Shown in pieces: positions 28,203 through 62,040 of a DNA stretch of 64,000 nucleotides; within the stretch, counting starts at the first letter, position 1; the number at the start of each line of letters is the position of its first letter. Source of the stretch: a virus (lineage: Duplodnaviria > Caudoviricetes); IMG/VR virus record IMGVR_UViG_3300037851_000941, positions 13,801 to 77,800 of that record; one strand, 5' to 3'. The notes beneath the pieces are model-generated. The model worked only from the letters and a program-made list of their open reading frames with translations. It did no database searches and had not been told where the DNA came from. Made by a program: the position numbers and the translations under genes.

Positions 28203-28251
28203 TGTGAGCGGCCTCACATTACACGGTAGGGTCAAGACCCGGTGGAGTCAA
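28203..28251 (-). promoter_or_regulatory. Sigma70-like promoter with an overlapping TGTGA-N6-TCACA palindrome
   Basis: TTGACT (28246-28251)-N17-TACCGT (28223-28228) on the minus strand; tgtga-gcggcc-tcaca at 28203-28218. Confidence 0.55.
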
Positions 28252-29093
28252 CCGTGCCGGGAGCCTTGCTCGCCGTTCCGCGAGATGCGGACCGCGCCGT
28301 GGCCGCGCCAGCCCCATTCCTCTTCTTCGGCCTCTTGCCCTGTGGCTGTGCCCGGGCCGTGCCTGCCTGCCGCTCCTCAGTCGGCGGGGGTGCGACCTGG
28401 GCCAGCGCGACGGACAGCGCGGCAACCAGCGCGGCGCCTTTCTCATCGAAACCGGGCACGTCAGGGTTCTCTGCCAAGAACTCGAGGCCTCGATGCGCGA
28501 ACGCCCGCAGCGCGGGCTCCACTACCCGGTCCGCCGTGGCCGTGGCCACGGTCAGCTTGTAGGTCCGCACGGGCGTCACACGGCTATCAACGCGGGAGTT
28601 GGCAGGGTCCGCTGCCGCCTCCATCTCGCGCAGGTACTGCTCGGGCACCGAGATGGCATCGCGCAAGACCAACAGGTCGTCCTCCGTCAGGCCCATGGCA
28701 GGCAGGTCCTGGATCACGCCACCCGTCCAACTCCTCGATGGACGCTATCAGGGCAGCGAGCCCGTCCACGTCGAACTCGCCCTCAATCTCGTTCAGGCCC
28801 ACGTTGAGCTTCCTGACGTCGGCTGCGCCGAGGTCGTCGCGGAAGATCACCGGGACCTTCTGGTCCTTTGGGATCGCGCCGGCCTCGACCATCTCCTGCA
28901 CCGCGACCAGGCGCTGGTGTCCGCCAATCACGGTCATCGTTCCCCGCTCCACGACCATCGGGACCGTGAAGCCGAACCGCAGCAGAGAGGCCCGCAGCTC
29001 GTCCCGCTTGCGACGCGACATCCGACGCGGGTTGTAGTCGGCAGGCACCAGCTTGGACCAAGGAACCAGCTCGACCTTGTTGAACAGTCTCAC
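28232..29093 (-). pseudogene. ParB-N-domain protein split by a 1-nt frameshift near 28722-28724
   Basis: LVPADYNPRRMS...IGGHQRL ParB-N motifs; removing one G joins ...IEELDG to GVIQDLPAMGLTEDDL... (286 aa). Confidence 0.7.
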
Positions 29094-30169
29094 GTCTCTT
29101 CTCCTTCTTCTGCGCACCCCGCGCCCGGACGCGCGCCCTCGAGCCCGTCGCGTCGCGCGACGAGCCCAACTGCCATCTTGTAGGCCTCGACCACGCGGTT
29201 CACGTTGCGGTCGGCCACGAAGAAGATGAAGCCGCGCGAGTTGCGCTGGTCATAGTACCGCTCCATCTTGGCGATGTGAACGACCGAGACAGCCGAGCGA
29301 TATGTTAGGTCCTCCAGCACGCGCCGCACGGAGAATCGGTGGCGCACGGCCAGGTCACGGACCTTCTCTGGCCTGAAGCCCCGAAAACCCGCCTGCTTGG
29401 ACACCAAGGTTATTCCATCGGCTGTTCTCTTACTCACCCGACGCTGCGTGGCCCGCGTACCGCCCAGGTGGCAGGCGAGCTTTTGACCGTCCCACAACCA
29501 CAACACCCCGTAACGCTGCACCGCCGCCAACATCGACGCATCCGCCGAGGCCCAGTCGAACGAGCGCATCAGCTCGCCGGCACCGCCTGTGCCGAGCGCG
29601 TGCAGTCGGGTCCCGTAGCGATACGCGAGCGAGTGGACGCGATGATACCAGCGCAGTCGGCGCAGGTACGCCTCGCGATTGTGCAAGAACTCCGTCTGAT
29701 TGTCCGTAGCAAGCCCAGTCCCCGAGTTCCCGACGGCGCACCAGCGATAGGCATCGCAGACCGACTCCACCTGCGCGTCGGTCATGAAGGGATGCAGGAC
29801 CGGCCAGGTCCTGCCCGCGCCCAGCGCGAGCCGGAGCGTCGCGGTGTGCCGCTTCACTATCTCGTGGTCGGACGGGTAATCGACGTCAATGGCCGCCTGC
29901 AGGAACCGACCCCAGTTCCTGGTCCTCAACCAGCCAGCATACCCTTCTACGCCGATCGCCACATTCTTCTGGCGGGCCGAGTAGACCCCGGAGTCGATCA
30001 GAAACCGGGGGACGCGCAGCCCTGCGCCCGAGAACTTCCTCGCTGCTTCCTGTGGATCGAACTGCCCGGACAGCAGCCAGTAGGACATCAGGAGGCCGCG
30101 CGCGGTCGGCTGTCCCCGATCAGCCGACCGCGCCGAGGCGATGCCAGTGCTCTGCGATGACTCGATCAC
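29090..30169 (-). CDS. TGT-fold DNA guanine transglycosylase (DpdA-like); alternative start 30088
   Basis: FLIDSGVYS, PVLH, LHALG, SADAS motifs of TGT/DpdA-like proteins; adjacent to folE/queD/queE. Confidence 0.75.
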   Translation of the reverse strand: MIESSQSTGIASARSADRGQPTARGLLMSYWLLSGQFDPQEAARKFSGAGLRVPRFLIDSGVYSARQKNVAIGVEGYAGWLRTRNWGRFLQAAIDVDYPSDHEIVKRHTATLRLALGAGRTWPVLHPFMTDAQVESVCDAYRWCAVGNSGTGLATDNQTEFLHNREAYLRRLRWYHRVHSLAYRYGTRLHALGTGGAGELMRSFDWASADASMLAAVQRYGVLWLWDGQKLACHLGGTRATQRRVSKRTADGITLVSKQAGFRGFRPEKVRDLAVRHRFSVRRVLEDLTYRSAVSVVHIAKMERYYDQRNSRGFIFFVADRNVNRVVEAYKMAVGLVARRDGLEGARPGAGCAEEGEET

Positions 30170-31142
30170 CTGCCCTCACTCCTTCCCCCGTGGCACCAGA
30201 TCCGTCGTGCCACACTCCGACGGGGTCAACAGCGTACCCGGACAAGACCCGACCGATGGCCCCGACCATGTCCTCAACAGTGTCGACCTCGGCGAAGCAC
30301 CCTTCCGCGAACAGCTCCGGGTAGCTGAGGCGGCGCGGCACGATCACCCGGCACCCCATCTGGGCGGCCTCGACCATCGCGATGCCGAACGTCTCCTGGA
30401 GGGCGGCAGAGACGCACAGGTAGGCGGACCCGAGGAGGGCGTGATACTCCGCCTTGGAGCCGGTGGCCTCGAGCGTCTCGACGAACCGCCAACCCGGCCA
30501 CGACGGTCGCAGCTGATCGACGGCCGCGCGCCAGATCCACGTCTGCTTCTCGGGCACCGCGCGGTGGGGCCAGACCACCAGCCGCTCTCGGCGACCTCCC
30601 CGCGCGGTCGGCGCCATCCTGACCGGCAGCGGGCTCACGGTCACGCGTTCGACGGGCAGCCCAGCCGAGGCCAGAAGCGTGCGGTGGTACCGGGTGGCGA
30701 CCACCGCGTCGTCCAGCGATCGCAGCACAGAGTCCTCGAACCCACGCGCCCACGCGCCGCAGCCGGCCTGGGCGAGGCGGTCGTGGGGGTCGTAGGTGCC
30801 GGCGTGCAGGATGCCGACCAGGCGCAGCGGCAGACCCGCCACATCGCGCATGTACGCGGCAGAGATCACCCCGGGATGCCAAGCATCGAGGAACACGACC
30901 GTGCTCGGCACGCCAGCGCGAGCCGCCGCCACCAACATCTCGACCTGGGCCGCCTTGTAGGCGTGCGTCTGCAGCGGGTCCAGGAACTGCTCCGCAGACA
31001 GGCTGCCCGAGCCCACGTCCGGGTGAAGCACGCCGACGTCGAACCCCGCCGCCGACAACGCGGCCGGCCACCACTCGAGCCACTGCGCCGTGTATCGCTG
31101 CTCGATGGGCTCGATGGGGAGCAGGAGGCAGCGGGCTCTCAC
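30120..31142 (-). CDS. GT-B fold glycosyltransferase
   Basis: GILHAGTYDP, LVVWPHRAVPEKQ, QETFGIAMVEAAQMGC..IVPRRLSYPE. Confidence 0.85.
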   Translation of the reverse strand: MRARCLLLPIEPIEQRYTAQWLEWWPAALSAAGFDVGVLHPDVGSGSLSAEQFLDPLQTHAYKAAQVEMLVAAARAGVPSTVVFLDAWHPGVISAAYMRDVAGLPLRLVGILHAGTYDPHDRLAQAGCGAWARGFEDSVLRSLDDAVVATRYHRTLLASAGLPVERVTVSPLPVRMAPTARGGRRERLVVWPHRAVPEKQTWIWRAAVDQLRPSWPGWRFVETLEATGSKAEYHALLGSAYLCVSAALQETFGIAMVEAAQMGCRVIVPRRLSYPELFAEGCFAEVDTVEDMVGAIGRVLSGYAVDPVGVWHDGSGATGEGVRAGDRVIAEHWHRLGAVG

Positions 31143-31498
31143 GCTACCTCGGCGGCAAGGGCGACGCGGGCGCCGTTCTCACCGTCCTCGTCAACCTCGA
31201 CCGTGGCCCAGCCGAGGCCGTACCTTCCGATCATCTGCTCAGCGAGCTGGCCAGCCAGGGCCTCACATGACATCGCCCCAAGCTCGCCGCCCGGCCAGGT
31301 ATCGGCAACGTGCCGCGACAGCTCCCTCTTCGTTGTAATGAACTCTATGTCGCGGTCGACGTGCGACACTGGAACCTCCACCCTCACATTGAACAGGTGG
31401 CGGTGGCGGCTGGAGAGGAACCCGCACCACTCGGGTGCCTCGGGCCAGCGGTGAAAGCCCTCGAACGAGAAGGTGAACCAGACGCTGGTGCGCTTCAC
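31139..31498 (-). CDS. QueD-paralogous T-fold protein (DpdL-like)
   Basis: GTG start overlaps upstream stop; FEGFHRWP, LSSRHRHLF (LxxxHRHxF), SCE, EDGENGA. Confidence 0.75.
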   Translation of the reverse strand: MKRTSVWFTFSFEGFHRWPEAPEWCGFLSSRHRHLFNVRVEVPVSHVDRDIEFITTKRELSRHVADTWPGGELGAMSCEALAGQLAEQMIGRYGLGWATVEVDEDGENGARVALAAEVA

Positions 31499-32169
31499 AG
31501 CGCTCTCCTCTCTCCGTCGTAGTCGCCCCAGTCCAGAGGGGAGTCGAAGACGTAGCCCGCGCACCGGCGGCAGAGGTCCAGGCTGCCTGTGGCCTCCACA
31601 TCGTTGCAGCACAGCGCGACCGAGCCGTCCCAGCACACCGCCCGCCACCCGTCAACGAGGAACGAGCACCGCGCCGACCGCGAGAGGTCCTCGCCCTCCA
31701 CATCGACGAAGCCTGCATACGACTGCAGCTCCTTCTTCGGCGCGTCGCTCTTGACCAGCAGCCGGTGCTCGGTCGCCAGCAGCGAAGGTGGAATCGAGAA
31801 CGTCGACAAACGCACGCCGAACGGGTCGGTGTGCAGTCGGAGATAGGACAGTCCGGCGTCCACCAGCGCGTTCAGCCGCTCCTGGGTCAGGCCCCGACCG
31901 TGCGTCGAGAACCCGACGGTGAAGCCGCGACCGGACGCCATGGACACGAGGCGCTCCAGCCCACGGTGCAGGAGCGGCTCCCCGAAGTGGTGCATCGACA
32001 TCACGCGGTTCGTTGCCACGTCCAGGACGCAGGAGAAGGTCTCCCCCGTGATGAACCCGCGCTTCCGCTGGTGCCGCGAGTGCGGGCAGTATGAGCAGCG
32101 GGCGTCGCAGTGGTTGGTCACCTCGACCTGGTACACCTTCAGCGCGGACGTGTCCCAGACCGAGGTCAT
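31495..32169 (-). CDS. Radical SAM protein with SPASM/twitch-like C-terminus
   Basis: EVTNHCDARCSYCPH (CX3CX2C), HHFGEPLLH, CSF...WDGSVALCCND...CRRC. Confidence 0.88.
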   Translation of the reverse strand: MTSVWDTSALKVYQVEVTNHCDARCSYCPHSRHQRKRGFITGETFSCVLDVATNRVMSMHHFGEPLLHRGLERLVSMASGRGFTVGFSTHGRGLTQERLNALVDAGLSYLRLHTDPFGVRLSTFSIPPSLLATEHRLLVKSDAPKKELQSYAGFVDVEGEDLSRSARCSFLVDGWRAVCWDGSVALCCNDVEATGSLDLCRRCAGYVFDSPLDWGDYDGERRAL

Positions 32170-32633
32170 CGCAGCACCGCATCTTCCAGGTAATCCTGCG
32201 GCCTGGTGCGCCAGCCGGACCCCACGCGGAAGGTTACGATGTTGTACGGCGCCCCCACCGACACGAGGTCGTCTGGCCGGAGCAGGTCAAGGACAGAATC
32301 GTGTGCCCGTAGCCTCGCCACCACCACTGCCCCGCGCACGAGTGATGCTGCAGTCGTGGCCGCCAGCACGTCCTCCTTGTTGGTGGCATCGCACTCGATC
32401 GTGCATGGCATACGATGCAACTCCAGCCAGGGCGCGAGCGTGTCGCGGAACCAGGCCCAGTCACGCAGCGTGTCGCGCACGAAGACGTGCCCCACCCTTG
32501 CCACCTCCAGCACCGCCGGGGCCACCGGCGAGGAGATCATCGCCGTCTGGACGCGCCACGGCGCCATCGGCCCCTCGACCTCCGGGCCGCGCCACGATGA
32601 GCCCGGGGTCATGATGCCGCGCGGGTGCGTCAT
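32166..32633 (-). CDS. Unknown protein translationally coupled inside the modification operon
   Basis: 155 aa; ATGA overlaps on both sides; WRGPEVEG motif. Confidence 0.7.
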   Translation of the reverse strand: MTHPRGIMTPGSSWRGPEVEGPMAPWRVQTAMISSPVAPAVLEVARVGHVFVRDTLRDWAWFRDTLAPWLELHRMPCTIECDATNKEDVLAATTAASLVRGAVVVARLRAHDSVLDLLRPDDLVSVGAPYNIVTFRVGSGWRTRPQDYLEDAVLR

Positions 32634-33208
32634 CTACCCAGCACCTTCAGCGCCTCGGCCCGCGCCGCAGCGTCCTCCCTCATGCTGCCGAAGAAGACCG
32701 TCGTGACCATCTCCCCCGTCGACTCGACGCCGCGCAAGCACATGCACGAGTGGACAGCCCGGACGATGACCCCGAGACCGACTGGGCAGAGCCCTTCCTG
32801 CAGCGTCCAGGCCACCTGCGCTGCGATCCTCTCCTGGACCTGGAGCCGCCGAGTGATGGCCCGGACGATGCGCGGGATCTTCGAGAGCCCGACGATTTTC
32901 CCGCTCGGGATGTACGCCACCGAGACGGTCCCGGTGAAAGGCAGGACGTGGTGCTCGCAGAGGGAGGCGAACGGGATGTCCTTGACCGCGACCATCGCGT
33001 CGCCCTCGCTCTCGAAGGTCACCAGCAACGAGCGCGGGTCCACCTCGTAGCCCGAGGTCAACTCCTGCATCGCCTTGGCCAGCCGCCGTGGCGTGTTCAC
33101 GAGCCCTTCCCGGGCCAGGTCTTCCCGACCGCCCAGCAACGCGGCCATGAACCCTCCTGCCGCATCCTGCAAGCCTGGCAAAGGGCGCTCGCTGTCAACG
33201 TGAACCAT
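32630..33208 (-). CDS. folE: GTP cyclohydrolase I
   Basis: SLCEHHVLPF, GLSKIPR, RRLQVQERI, HSCMCLRGV. Confidence 0.96.
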   Translation of the reverse strand: MVHVDSERPLPGLQDAAGGFMAALLGGREDLAREGLVNTPRRLAKAMQELTSGYEVDPRSLLVTFESEGDAMVAVKDIPFASLCEHHVLPFTGTVSVAYIPSGKIVGLSKIPRIVRAITRRLQVQERIAAQVAWTLQEGLCPVGLGVIVRAVHSCMCLRGVESTGEMVTTVFFGSMREDAAARAEALKVLGR

Positions 33209-33226
33209 GTCGCAATCCTCCTCTCG

Positions 33227-33926
33227 TTACCGAAGACCGAGCGCCTTGTGCATCTGGACCGACAGCCGCCAGCCCGGGTGCCCAAAGACGTAGTTGACCG
33301 CCGCGCCCAACACCGAGGGCTCCACGGACAGCGAGCCGTCGCACGTCGGGCAGGCGGGGGGGGGAGACGTAGAGCCGCGCGAAGCCCCCGAGGGCCGCCG
33401 CGTACTCGTGCGGGGCCGGCAGCCCGGAAGGGTACACGACCTTTAGCTCGTTCCCCGACCGAACCGCCACCCTCTCGGGCGCCGTCTTCGGGGACACGCA
33501 GACCCAGTCAACGCCCGCGGCCTCCGCAGAGCCGTCCCTGAACTGGACCGTCCCGTTCGTCTCCACGGCGATCGTGAGCCGCTGCCCGTCGCAGGCCGCG
33601 CGGATGGCATCGGTCAGGCGGCGGTCGAGCTGCAGCAGCGGCTCCCCGCCCGTGATCACGAGCAGCCCCTCGGGCCCGGGACAGGTGGCGCCGAGGTGCG
33701 CGACCTCCCGTGCGACCTCGTCGACGGCGCGGCCCCGTCGGGCAGAAACAAAGTCCGTGTCGCACCAGCGCGGGCAGTCGGCCCCGGCCCGGGAGGCGTC
33801 GCGTTCGCGGTCGGCATCGCGCCCGCTCCACAGGTTACAGCCGGCCAGGCGCAGGAACACGGCCGGCCGCCCAGCATTGGCACCTTCGCCCTGCAGCGAG
33901 CGAAAGATCTCCTGGACCGCGTACAC
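33227..33926 (-). pseudogene. queE: 7-carboxy-7-deazaguanine synthase, frameshifted in a C9 (G9 on +) tract
   Basis: EIFRSLQGEG, FLRLAGCNLW...CPRWCDTDF, ITGGEPLLQ, VETNGT, VSPK; the conserved end HPGWRLSVQMHKALGLR* lies in the +1 frame after 33356-33364. Confidence 0.88.
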
Positions 33927-33930
33927 GGTC

Positions 33931-34383
33931 CTACGCCTCGACCGTGGCGCAGCACTGCGGGGTCTCCCAGATCGTGACCCGGGAGACCCGGAGACCGCCC
34001 CCGTCATCCGCGCGCTCCAGCAGCGAGCGGGCCACGTCCAGCAAGGCGGCGGCCATCAACTCGGCCGTCGGCTCACCGTCGAGGCAGTATGGCGGGCGAT
34101 GCCCGCTCTGCTCCTCGTCCTCTTGGCACTAACGCAGGAGGCGCTCGTCGGCTCGGTTGACCAGGGTGGTGTGGTCCCAGTGGGAGTCGATCCACTGCCC
34201 GACCCTCGCCTTGATCTCTCCGAAGTCGATCACGCGCCCGCACCCGTCCAGCCGCTCGGCCGTACACGCGATCTCGGCACGGTATCGATGGCCGTGCAGC
34301 GTCGAGCACTTCGACTCGTGCCGCAGAACGCGGTGGGCAGAGTCCCACTCGAAGACCCTCGTGACGGTCGTCTGGTTCCCCAT
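33931..34383 (-). pseudogene. queD: 6-carboxytetrahydropterin synthase with an in-frame TAG at 34129-34131
   Basis: DSAHRV, CSTLHGHRY, VIDFG before the stop; PTAELMA and VTIWETP continue in the same frame after it. Confidence 0.88.
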
Positions 34384-34451: not shown

Positions 34452-34943
34452 CTACCGGTCAATGAGGGCTCTGGCCCGCAACCACTGCCCCACGGCGACG
34501 AGTGCCGGGCTGGGAGGCCGCCGCTGGGCGCGGAGCAGGAGACGGATCTCGGCCAGGGCATCCTCGATCTCCCGGCTGGAGGGCTTCTTGATCGCGGGGC
34601 GCGGTGCCATCTCTACCGCGCTGGCCAGCCCGGCGACCCAGACGGCCGCGCTGCGCCCGCTGCGCGGGTTGCGGCGGCGCGCGCCCGAGTCGCGCACCCA
34701 GCCCCGGAGCACCAGCTCGCGGCGCCTGGCGCTCACGGTCTGGTGCGGCAGGCGGAGCCGGTCCTCCAGCTCCTCGTCGGTGCAGCCCCGTCGGCCGGCG
34801 TCCCGGATGGCGCTCAGCACCAGGGAGCGGAGGCGGCCAGCATGGGGCCTGATGTCCTGGGCGGCCTGCTCCGAGGTGTCGGAGTCGGCCTCGTGCGGCG
34901 GCTGCCCGTAGTAGGGCTCCCGGTAGAGCAGCACAGGGCTCAC
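34452..34943 (-). CDS. Winged-helix DNA-binding protein
   Basis: GCTDEELEDRL..HQTVSARRREL...G.VRDSG.RR. Confidence 0.7.
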   Translation of the reverse strand: MSPVLLYREPYYGQPPHEADSDTSEQAAQDIRPHAGRLRSLVLSAIRDAGRRGCTDEELEDRLRLPHQTVSARRRELVLRGWVRDSGARRRNPRSGRSAAVWVAGLASAVEMAPRPAIKKPSSREIEDALAEIRLLLRAQRRPPSPALVAVGQWLRARALIDR

Positions 34944-35149
34944 CGCTCCTCGAAGGGCAGGTCGCGGTCCTCTGCGAGCCAGCGCGGGATGGCCAGCATG
35001 CCCTCGTCGCCCTCGCTCCACACCTCGGACTCTGGACGGACCTGACTGAGCGGGATGGTGACGCGGCCGACGGCCGTGTCCGCGACGATGGCTGCCTCGG
35101 TCTCCCGAAGCACGGAGGCCCAGACGAGCACGGTGTCACCGCCGCTCAC
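34940..35149 (-). CDS. Hypothetical protein
   Basis: 69 aa, GTGA overlaps; IPRWLAEDR motif. Confidence 0.6.
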   Translation of the reverse strand: MSGGDTVLVWASVLRETEAAIVADTAVGRVTIPLSQVRPESEVWSEGDEGMLAIPRWLAEDRDLPFEER

Positions 35150-39501: not shown

Positions 39502-40095
39502 CTACGGGCTGGCGAACCGGGCGTGGGCGCGGCCCTCCACGCTGTCGGGGCCGGTGCCCCAGACCAGGGCGTTCGTGTGGCCGCTGTCCCACCGCTCCAG
39601 GCCGTGGATGACCTCGTGGACGGTGGGCGAGCCCCGCTCGATGCTGGCCCCGATGAGCGAGGCGCGGATGGTGGCACCGAGCGGGCCACTGCCGATGGCC
39701 CTGGGGATCTGCCCGCGCACGGCGCACGTCCGGGGTCCCATGGGGGCGAGGTCGCCCTGCCAGGCGGCCTCGTAGGCGGCGTCGGGCAGGAAGTGAAAGG
39801 TGAAGCCGGCCAGCTGGCGGCAGGGGTCGAGGCGCCCCCGGTCGTGCTCGCGCCAGGACTCCCCGGTGACCACCACGGCGCGCAGGCACGCCTGGGCGAG
39901 CCAGCGCAGCGTGGCGTCGTCGATGTCGGGCACGGCCCGGTCCACGATGGTCGTGACGCGGCCGTAGCAGGGGTGGGGCACGTCCACGCGGCGCCCGGCC
40001 GGGTAGCGCACCCGCCGGCACAGGGTCAGGCCGACGACGGCGATGGCGACGGCGCCGATGATGGTCAGGGTGAGCACGATCCACTGCGGTTCCAT
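39502..40095 (-). CDS. Membrane-anchored protein with HExxH motif
   Basis: N-terminal TM segment WIVLTLTIIGAVAIAVVGLTL; TVHEVIHGL. Confidence 0.6.
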   Translation of the reverse strand: MEPQWIVLTLTIIGAVAIAVVGLTLCRRVRYPAGRRVDVPHPCYGRVTTIVDRAVPDIDDATLRWLAQACLRAVVVTGESWREHDRGRLDPCRQLAGFTFHFLPDAAYEAAWQGDLAPMGPRTCAVRGQIPRAIGSGPLGATIRASLIGASIERGSPTVHEVIHGLERWDSGHTNALVWGTGPDSVEGRAHARFASP

Positions 40096-40122
40096 GTTTC
40101 GGGGCTTTCTGGGGAAGAGGGG

Positions 40123-40459
40123 TCAGCGGGACGGTTCGGAGGTGTTCGGAGGTGTCCGGCGGCGGCGCGGGCAGGAAGACATCGTAGCGCCAGGCCGGCA
40201 GCCGCAGGGAGCCCCGCGACTGGATGTCCACGGCGACCACGCGGAGGCGCTGGCCGGGCGGCAGCGACAGCGCGTGGAGCTGGGCGAGCAGCGGGCCAAG
40301 GGGCTCCCGGACCGGGTCGAGGAGCAGGGCGCGACCGTCGTCCAGTCGGACCACCGCCGCCGCGCCCTCCCAGGCGGTCAGGGTGCCCTCGAAGCCGTCC
40401 CCGCGCTGCCTGGGCAGCCAGGGCTCCGGGGGCATGGCGCGCACCCACCGGGCGGTCAC
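40123..40459 (-). pseudogene. Hypothetical protein whose stop is bypassed by a 10-bp duplication
   Basis: GTG 40459; ttcggaggtg x2 at 40135-40154; with one copy the ORF ends at TGA 40123 (109 codons). Confidence 0.45.
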
Positions 40460-58952: not shown

Positions 58953-59013
58953 GCAGCCCTGTTTCGGAAAAGAGCGGCAAATCTGACGAGCACCGGCAGC
59001 TGGGGGGGGGTAA

Positions 59014-61651: not shown

Positions 61652-62040
61652 CAGCGCCCCTTTCGCCGTGCTGTCGCTTTGGCCGTGTTTGCATAGTGCA
61701 TTCCGAGTTGTTCTGCAAGCCGAAGATTCTGCGCGGGGCGGCTTGCCCTTCAGCGCGGCCGGGACTAAATGGGCATCGGGCACCCAGTTCTGCGCATGGA
61801 GCGCACCTGTGGTGGCCAGGAACTAAGGGACCCTGGCAGGCGGTCGAGGCGGGGCCGAGGGGCAGACGGGGCAGACCCGGACCTGACGCACGCTGACATC
61901 GCGCTCTCACTTACCTCGCTCGAGGCAGTCTGGGGGGGGGGTAAGGGGGGGGCGATCTCAGCAGGACCTTCAGGGCTCCGGGTGCAGTGGGCAGCGGCAG
62001 TGCTCGGGTGCAGCGGGGCAGCTAGCACAGTGAGCGGTGC

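Follow-up and report, generated by a model that had tools for sequence, protein, structure and literature searches.

A QueC-less 7-deazaguanine operon of a tailed phage that pairs a DpdL-like protein with a glycosyltransferase and may place a sugar-bearing deazaguanine in DNA

FolE, QueD and QueE convert GTP to 7-carboxy-7-deazaguanine (CDG), and enzymes of the DpdA kind exchange guanine in DNA for a 7-deazaguanine. To our knowledge, the eight known 7-deazaguanine modifications of DNA all carry small substituents at C7, and the glycosylated DNA bases known so far are pyrimidines only. Here we describe an operon in a 64,000-nt stretch of viral DNA (the window; bases 13801-77800 of the 77.8 kb linear virus record IMGVR_UViG_3300037851_000941 of IMG/VR) that encodes a 7-deazaguanine pathway without QueC, together with a DpdL-like protein, a glycosyltransferase and a second radical SAM (S-adenosylmethionine) enzyme. 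It is a new, uncharacterised variant among the known phage 7-deazaguanine systems.

Cellulophaga phage phiST encodes FolE, QueD, QueE, DpdL and DpdA3 and lacks QueC. As all G in this QueC-less phage is replaced by 2′-deoxy-7-deazaguanosine (dDG), the protein named DpdL was proposed to be a CDG decarboxylase (Cui, Hutinet et al. 2023, PMC10516641). The activity was not reconstituted from the phiST genes or those of Acidovorax phage ACP17 in E. coli, and other enzymes are perhaps needed (PMC10516641). The window resembles phiST in its QueC-less FolE-QueD-QueE front end, its DpdL with the motif LxxxHRHxF and its adjacent transglycosylase, whereas phiST has neither a glycosyltransferase nor a second radical SAM enzyme, carries a MazG-like gene and DpdA3, and has had its dDG measured. 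ACP17 (gp122-gp126) and Pseudomonas phage PA5oct (gp162-gp168) share with the window the adjacency of DpdL and a glycosyltransferase, QueE and FolE, and the lack of QueC. They differ from it in having an acidic transglycosylase candidate (gp123/gp168) that resembles DpdA only remotely and a protein of the gp122 family, and in lacking the BtrN-like radical SAM enzyme. The DNA of PA5oct, in which the DpdL and glycosyltransferase pair is present, is resistant at G-containing restriction sites and is reported to contain a modified G (PMC12191111).

Three further systems are similar in single components. Enterobacteria phage 9g has a transglycosylase that is probably of the same family as that of the window, but it has Gat-QueC and makes preQ0/G+, dG+ being inserted via preQ0, in place of the DpdL, glycosyltransferase and radical SAM enzyme of the QueC-less window. 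HuiG of the huimycin/dapiramicin pathway of Kutzneria albida, a GT4-type glycosyltransferase (PF13439) whose cluster includes FolE, QueD and QueE homologues, attaches N-acetylglucosamine to N2 of a 7-deazaguanine free base (PMC7439116; 10.64898/2026.04.15.718813). The likeness here is one of enzyme type; the huimycin pathway belongs to bacterial secondary metabolism, needs QueC and preQ0, and yields a free nucleoside antibiotic. Finally, the DpdA of Salmonella Montevideo is a transglycosylase of the tRNA-guanine transglycosylase (TGT) fold with conserved catalytic Asp residues, like that of the window, and requires the ParB-fold ATPase DpdB (44 kDa, NTPase motif DGQQR) (PMC10164549). The window also has a ParB-like gene next to its transglycosylase gene, but this gene contains a frameshift, and no lineage other than the high-GC one formed by the window and its nearest relative, L166, was found to have it. 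The latter is a locus of 71% GC from our glycosyltransferase-based metagenome scan, in which the glycosyltransferase, DpdL and DpdA are 60, 56 and 43% identical to those of the window, respectively.

We propose, with a probability of roughly one half, that the locus is a phage operon for the post-replicative replacement of guanine by 7-deazaguanine that also places a sugar-bearing deazaguanine in the virion DNA. The more specific proposal, that DpdL and its conserved GT4 glycosyltransferase partner, joined in this phage by a BtrN-like radical SAM enzyme, yield a glycosylated and possibly oxidised 7-deazaguanine in phage DNA through a DpdA-type enzyme, is made a little more tentatively. No paper in the literature library that was searched describes a 7-deazaguanine in DNA that carries a sugar, in agreement with the original prediction made from the sequence alone, which named no characterised case in phage DNA.

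The glycosyltransferase of the window has a C-terminal domain of the Glycos_transf_1 type and carries the E250-x7-E258 motif conserved in the family alignment as well as family-specific N-terminal motifs. It is 30–34% identical (E ∼1e-40) to ACP17 gp124, PA5oct gp167 and 224 of Sinorhizobium phage Phosso, all of which are encoded beside DpdL. A tblastn search yielded homologues (25–34% identity, E to 1e-40) in ACP17, eleven PA5oct-like phages, Phosso, Xanthomonas X1/BUDD and Burkholderia BCSR5, and wherever DpdL was located (ACP17, ten of the PA5oct-like phages, Phosso, X1/BUDD and BCSR5) it adjoins or neighbours the glycosyltransferase. We also surveyed IMG/VR with scans anchored on DpdL and on the glycosyltransferase, each of which gave more than 586 loci, and fetched 80 loci from each. 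DpdL was present in 72 of the 80 glycosyltransferase-anchored loci; the remaining 8 are truncated, their contigs stopping no more than 420 nt upstream of the glycosyltransferase gene, in the region expected to hold DpdL. Starting from DpdL, a glycosyltransferase was found in 47 of 80. The gene order queD-queE-folE-dpdL-rSAM-GT-dpdA (rSAM, radical SAM; GT, glycosyltransferase) recurs in L019, L034, L087-L090, L092-L094, L096, L098 and L166. Judged by gene neighbourhood, this virus-specific glycosyltransferase family is a conserved partner of DpdL, and the present phage shares the combination with the cultured phages ACP17, Phosso and those like PA5oct, as well as with hundreds of contigs in IMG/VR. 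The original prediction had singled out the glycosyltransferase, DpdL and ORF155, an open reading frame (ORF) of the operon, as a set whose joint occurrence could be surveyed. The first two do occur together, whereas ORF155 is an orphan.

In loci with both DpdL and the glycosyltransferase, the partner transglycosylase belongs either to the family of the window or to that of ACP17 gp123 and PA5oct gp168. The two families align with an hhalign probability of 80% (E 1.4e-5), with the catalytic Asp motifs in register. The gp123/gp168 family, seen at L002:3689-4963, at L003:7376-8998 and in about 90 IMG/VR loci, is encoded next to the glycosyltransferase and DpdL and is acidic with a median isoelectric point (pI) of 5.65 and may represent a further DpdA subfamily. 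Small proteins resembling gp122 (L002:3294-3692, L086:10981-11448, L057:4836-5615; more than 70 loci) are conserved as a fourth component of clusters with the glycosyltransferase and DpdL. They have a G-x-E-x-E-G motif near the N-terminus, and the L057 copy is fused to the C-terminus of DpdL; an Atlas search with a gp122-family protein gave no result.

The DpdL-like protein of the window displays the signature L-S-S-R-H-R-H-L-F, which is the LxxxHRHxF motif, in place of the CxxxHGH of QueD. H26, H28 and F30 are invariant in an alignment with the proteins of phiST, ACP17, PA5oct and Phosso, and the window retains every invariant residue. The protein is 40% identical to phiST CGPG_00067 (DpdL; E 2e-22), and a profile built from 131 DpdL proteins aligns to the co-encoded QueD proteins with an hhalign probability of 95% (E 2e-8). 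The genomic context is that of a DpdL, as FolE, QueD, QueE and DpdA are present and QueC is absent. In a tree of DpdL proteins the window falls in a well-supported set containing all 18 loci in which the glycosyltransferase is combined with a DpdA1-like protein. The strongly conserved positions are identical between 103 glycosyltransferase-linked and 16 glycosyltransferase-free DpdL proteins. From these sequences we infer that DpdL acts alike with or without the glycosyltransferase, which would therefore add a step to the route to dDG rather than replace it.

Two side observations concern genes found along with DpdL. A phosphoribosyltransferase-like protein (PA5oct gp163 family; L003:11327-11761, ∼40 loci) recurs in DpdL loci, some of them free of the glycosyltransferase, which hints that some phages may convert the deazaguanine base to a nucleotide. 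In L019:9073-9981 and L057:3911-4846, FolE has an N-terminal extension of ∼125 amino acids that has no Pfam match.

The transglycosylase of the window is divergent. Pattern scans of IMG/VR, JGI metagenomes and GTDB genomes found no close relatives of it, and among 5.8 billion proteins there were only two close homologues; an exhaustive profile search gave 312 relatives. Of the 61 relatives that were aligned, all matched phrog_887, 58 matched phrog_7068 and none matched a Pfam family. An AlphaFold2 model reached a pLDDT (predicted local distance difference test) of 85.8 with the 61-relative alignment, compared with 51 when three sequences were used. Comparison of the model with 48,161 solved chains returned archaeosine TGT (ArcTGT; Z 13.2), the bacterial DpdA 7ui4 (Z 12.3), QTRT2, Cap10 and bacterial TGT. 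These five best matches (Z 11.9–13.2) all belong to the TGT/DpdA superfamily, and the next unrelated barrel scored 10.0; the best Foldseek matches were bacterial TGT (E 5e-4). D32 of a DSG motif and D183 of an SxDS motif are invariant in the 61 relatives and align, in an alignment with a weak E-value (0.044), to Asp95 and Asp256 of 7ui4. In the S. Montevideo enzyme these residues are the acid/base and the nucleophile, respectively (PMC10164549).

When a hidden Markov model (HMM) of the 61-member family was compared with DpdA1 and DpdA3 references, gp03 of phage 9g (DpdA1) scored 179 bits. A direct pairwise comparison of the window protein with 9g DpdA1 gave no significant similarity. Membership in DpdA3 was rejected, as the family HMM and hhalign both miss phiST DpdA3 and the PHROGs differ (phrog_20335 for DpdA3, phrog_887 here). 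On these profile matches we regard the TGT-like protein, which has a pI of 9.96, as a divergent DpdA, probably of the DpdA1 (phage 9g) kind. A grouping with tRNA-acting TGTs had been named beforehand as an outcome that would count against a DNA-modifying role; the relatives instead fall in phage DpdA PHROGs. The earlier assignment is supported for the pathway as such, a 7-deazaguanine route of the DpdL type that lacks QueC and whose DNA transglycosylase belongs to the DpdA superfamily.

The ParB-like gene adjoins dpdA both in the window and in L166 (L166:4584-5474), an adjacency not found in the other 160-odd loci. Its product has a GGHQR (IGGHQR-type) motif, compared with DGQQR in DpdB, and its ParB_N domain matches PHROGs strongly but Pfam only weakly. 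A fusion of ParB and methyltransferase domains was rejected, as a methylase domain was not found downstream. By analogy with the bacterial enzyme pair the ParB-like protein might be a DpdB-like helper, but this is speculation.

The second radical SAM enzyme is a compact protein in which the CX3CX2C cysteines (C21, C25 and C28) as well as C168, C187, C200 and C203, the four of an auxiliary cluster, are invariant across four orthologues (window, L086, L008 and L054). The profile of its family matches BtrN with an E-value of 8e-19, the next-best solved radical SAM enzyme reaching 5e-9. The Pfam SPASM domain matches the relatives in L054, L008 and L166, not the window's own protein. Of the 18 loci that combine the glycosyltransferase with a DpdA1-like protein, 15 carry an additional radical SAM gene, which comes in two kinds: one of ∼310–460 amino acids (L034, L019), and that of the window (L054, L086, L008, L166). 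BtrN is the 2-deoxy-scyllo-inosamine dehydrogenase of the butirosin pathway (PDB 4M7S/4M7T). It is the best solved relative of the window protein, equally compact and with one auxiliary cluster, whereas its substrate is an aminocyclitol in antibiotic synthesis. At the level of sequence, the match fits a role for the radical SAM enzyme in tailoring a sugar. The earlier suggestion that the glycosyltransferase and second radical SAM enzyme add chemistry to the base holds in that both are conserved companions of the pathway in many viruses; a glycosylated base would be their predicted product. As a separate observation, the gene immediately upstream of the one for the BtrN-like radical SAM enzyme in L086 encodes an HD-domain deoxyribonucleoside 5′-monophosphate phosphatase (L086:12155-12772; phrog_318, E 6e-56).

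ORF155 had been expected to contribute further chemistry as well, and this part of the original prediction did not stand. ORF155 has no match in Pfam, PHROG or NCBIfam and no homologue among 5.8 billion proteins, and its ESM Atlas model is poor (pLDDT 0.59). It is missing in L166, where a 324-aa radical SAM/SPASM gene directly follows folE. Because it lacks homologues and is absent from the nearest relative, we treat ORF155 as a lineage-specific insertion that is unlikely to have a role in the core chemistry. A kinship with the gp122 family is not claimed, since it would be based on one short GxEvEG motif with an hhalign probability of 1%.

The features of the locus, identified from Pfam, PHROG and NCBIfam profile matches, are listed in Table 1. 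All eight genes of the predicted run, from queD to the TGT-like gene, were recovered in their places on the minus strand. The translational coupling described for them is real, with ATGA or GTGA overlaps at the folE/ORF155, ORF155/rSAM, rSAM/dpdL and dpdL/GT junctions. The 3′ limit of the operon had to be moved, as the ParB-like gene is joined to dpdA by an overlapping start and stop codon (GTGA) of the same kind. Upstream of queD, at a distance of 68 nt, is a MarR-like gene, a candidate regulator of the operon.

Table 1. Genes of the deazaguanine operon and its upstream neighbour, with their profile matches (positions in the window).
Feature	Position	Strand	Evidence and remarks
queD, 6-carboxytetrahydropterin synthase	33931..34383	-	PF01242 E 6e-19; TIGR03367 E 8e-18; in-frame TAG
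queE, 7-carboxy-7-deazaguanine synthase	33227..33926	-	TIGR04508 E 5e-46; phrog_2076 E 3e-25; +1 frameshift
folE, GTP cyclohydrolase I	32630..33208	-	PF01227 E 3e-57; TIGR00063 183.6 bits, above cut-off; intact
ORF155, orphan	32166..32633	-	no family; ATGA overlaps with folE upstream and rSAM downstream
Compact radical SAM protein, BtrN-like ('r1' type), 224 aa	31495..32169	-	PF04055 E 1e-7; N-terminal matches to SPASM-class NCBIfam families
dpdL-like T-fold protein (QueD paralogue)	31139..31498	-	phrog_17812 E 6e-24; GTG start overlaps rSAM stop
GT4-type (GT-B) glycosyltransferase	30120..31142	-	PF13692 27.0 bits (at cut-off); PF00534 and PF13439 below cut-off
dpdA-like DNA-guanine transglycosylase, 332 aa	29090..30088	-	phrog_887 ('queuine tRNA-ribosyltransferase') E 3e-10
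ParB-N-domain protein	28232..29093	-	PF02195 weak; phrog_498 E 1e-25; phrog_620 E 1e-22; frameshifted
MarR-like winged-helix protein	34452..35021	-	PF12802 E 1e-5, just below cut-off; phrog_1123 E 9e-13

The record has a G+C content of ∼70%, and CheckV estimates its completeness at 74%. Since its PHROG matches include a tape measure protein, a tail sheath, a head-tail adaptor, a portal and a large terminase, we take the virus to be a tailed phage with a contractile tail. The operon sits on the minus strand between the terminase and portal genes. The absence of queC, queF and arcS from the window was upheld and extended: QueC, QueF and the core domain of ArcS (DUF5591) were not found anywhere in the 77.8 kb record, nor in five related records, two of which are at least 94% complete. 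Enzymes of sugar-nucleotide synthesis were likewise absent from the record of the window.

In the pathway that we propose, FolE, QueD and QueE would convert GTP to CDG by established chemistry, and the DpdL-like T-fold enzyme would act on CDG, most likely by decarboxylation to 7-deazaguanine as the literature proposes for DpdL. The dedicated GT4 glycosyltransferase would attach a sugar to the deazaguanine, and the donor would be a host nucleoside diphosphate sugar because the record encodes no enzymes for making one. The BtrN-like radical SAM enzyme may then tailor the attached sugar, e.g., by oxidising a secondary alcohol. The basic DpdA1-like transglycosylase would exchange the base into DNA, a step suggested by its fold and its catalytic Asp residues. 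The sugar could be added to the free base before insertion, which we slightly favour, or onto the DNA afterwards. With a median pI of 5.7 the glycosyltransferase family shares the acidity of the pathway's small-molecule enzymes, whereas the DpdA family is basic (median 9.0); this contrast weakly favours glycosylation of the free base.

Several points weigh against a sugar-bearing base made by this phage. The base itself we infer from gene linkage alone, and the decarboxylase activity of DpdL has never been reconstituted. 7-Deazaguanine has no hydroxyl group, so a retaining GT4 enzyme would need to form an N- or C-glycoside or to act on another intermediate. Because the glycosyltransferase is missing from phiST-type loci and from three loci with a DpdA1-like protein (L024, L041 and L046), it is dispensable for deazaguanine modification as such. 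The argument from pI is weak, as the gp168-type DpdA-like proteins are acidic too, and the record is incomplete, so that queC could lie elsewhere in this virus. Lastly, neither queD nor queE has the uninterrupted reading frame of a functional gene, and this copy of the operon is either decaying, reliant on CDG supplied by the host, or affected by sequence errors. It may therefore not work.

The identities given to queD and queE by the original prediction stand, but their reading frames had to be corrected. The queD profile matches span only the first 72 of 121 profile positions; an in-frame TAG follows at 34129-34131, beyond which the same frame continues to a TAG at 33931-33933 and retains the PTAE and ETP motifs of the C-terminal part. 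Recoding of TAG was rejected, as TAG ends 14 of 61 long ORFs and the record contains no tRNA genes. The true start of queE is a GTG at 33926, 4 nt past the queD stop. The gene has a +1 frameshift in a run of nine C at 33356-33364 (nine G on the plus strand), and its conserved tail, ending in HPGWRLSVQMHK, lies in a different frame; a run of eight C would unite both frames. The queE orthologue in L166 is a single reading frame. The ParB-like gene is shifted near 28715-28730 by one extra base beside a G run, and its N- and C-terminal parts, which lie in different frames, align to residues 65-187 and 180-294 of one L166 protein (E 2e-41 and 8e-25, respectively).

These three lesions lie within ∼6.2 kb. 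As this is ∼8% of the genome, their clustering suggests relaxed selection on the module. A frame scan of the 77.8 kb based on G+C at third codon positions (GC3) revealed no further clear frameshift, and large ORFs elsewhere are intact (1,895 aa, 885 aa, and a 751-aa ORF that matches a PHROG profile end to end). At 40090-40180 on the minus strand the coding signal changes frame at the start of a membrane-protein gene, the upstream frame being open for more than 200 codons. This candidate frameshift was rejected because it looks like a normal start of a gene next to which the upstream frame happens to be open, and the pattern may reflect a lost stop codon or merely an open frame in high-GC DNA. 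The only other long homopolymers of the record are G runs of 8–10 bases at 59002-59010, 61932-61941 and 61945-61952, and no frame break is linked to them.

It is possible, though we consider it doubtful, that the module in this virus is a decaying remnant that produces nothing, with a genuine nonsense codon in queD and genuine frameshifts in queE and the ParB-like gene. The close packing of the lesions in an otherwise intact genome, the single reading frames of the queE and ParB-like orthologues in L166, and the use of TAG as a normal stop without any suppressor tRNA would all be consistent with decay. However, each broken gene has one lesion and no additional degradation, while no defect is seen in folE, dpdL, dpdA or the genes of the radical SAM enzyme and the glycosyltransferase, whose overlapping start and stop codons are preserved. 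In addition, the C9 run in queE is a classic spot for sequencing or assembly errors and for reversible slippage, and CDG could come from the QueD and QueE of the host.

We hold it equally doubtful that the operon of the real phage is intact and that the lesions arose as errors of sequencing or assembly or represent variants present in a minority. The contig is a metagenome assembly, the queE shift amounts to one surplus base in a 9-base homopolymer, and that of the ParB-like gene to one extra base beside a G run. On the other hand, a TAG substitution is atypical for an assembly error, the three other homopolymers of at least eight bases are free of frame breaks, and errors would not be expected to cluster in a single operon.

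A different product is less likely still. The final base could be plain dDG as in phiST, with the glycosyltransferase and radical SAM enzyme serving indirectly, e.g., by way of an intermediate that is glycosylated only transiently, in a carrier function or self-protection, or in the turnover of DpdL, so that no sugar stays in the DNA. This would agree with active-site positions of DpdL that are the same with and without the glycosyltransferase, with the production of dDG by phiST without a glycosyltransferase, and with the acidity of the glycosyltransferase family, which is that of small-molecule enzymes. It would also accord with the result that ACP17 dpdL and dpdA alone yielded no dDG in E. 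coli, upon which the authors suggested that more enzymes may be required. A virus-specific glycosyltransferase, often accompanied by a sugar-tailoring radical SAM enzyme, would however be costly for a base that phiST makes without either, and we found no precedent in the literature for a transient glycoside in deazapurine biosynthesis.

It is very improbable that the TGT-like protein acts on tRNA or on a protein, as does Cap10 of the type IV cyclic-oligonucleotide-based antiphage signalling system (CBASS), rather than on DNA: the fold scores of archaeosine TGT, QTRT2 and Cap10 are near that of DpdA (Z 12–13), but its close and distant relatives are all in phage DpdA PHROGs, the validated DNA enzyme of phage 9g is recognised by the family HMM, and the gene is phage-borne with no QueC/Cap9-like partner. 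Just as improbable is a glycosyltransferase that is in the operon by chance and glycosylates 5-hydroxymethyl- or 5-hydroxy-pyrimidines, as GT-B/GT4-like enzymes do with 5-hydroxymethylcytosine and 5-hydroxycytosine in phage DNA (PMC13326640); we rejected this identity because a hydroxymethylase of the ThyA type (thymidylate-synthase family) is absent from the record and from four related ones, of which two reach at least 94% completeness, and the glycosyltransferase family accompanies DpdL essentially wherever this can be tested.

The survey bears on the published negative result with ACP17, in which E. coli made no dDG from dpdL and the gene that the authors called dpdA. The experiment as reported does not mention the glycosyltransferase, the constant neighbour of dpdL, and names dDG as the only product looked for. 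To this group of loci the window contributes a high-GC lineage, a DpdA1-like partner and a variant with a BtrN-like radical SAM enzyme, and it suggests that such modules can decay. If the reading of a sugar-bearing deazaguanine in virion DNA is true, no purine with a sugar attached to it would have been described from any DNA before, and glycosylated deazapurines would make up a new class among the hypermodifications of DNA. Such a modification could provide enzymatic tools for labelling the guanine positions of DNA. For the phages themselves, the modification would extend to hundreds of lineages, including ACP17 and PA5oct-like jumbo phages, and would be of relevance to the evasion of restriction and CRISPR and to sensing by type IV and END nucleases.

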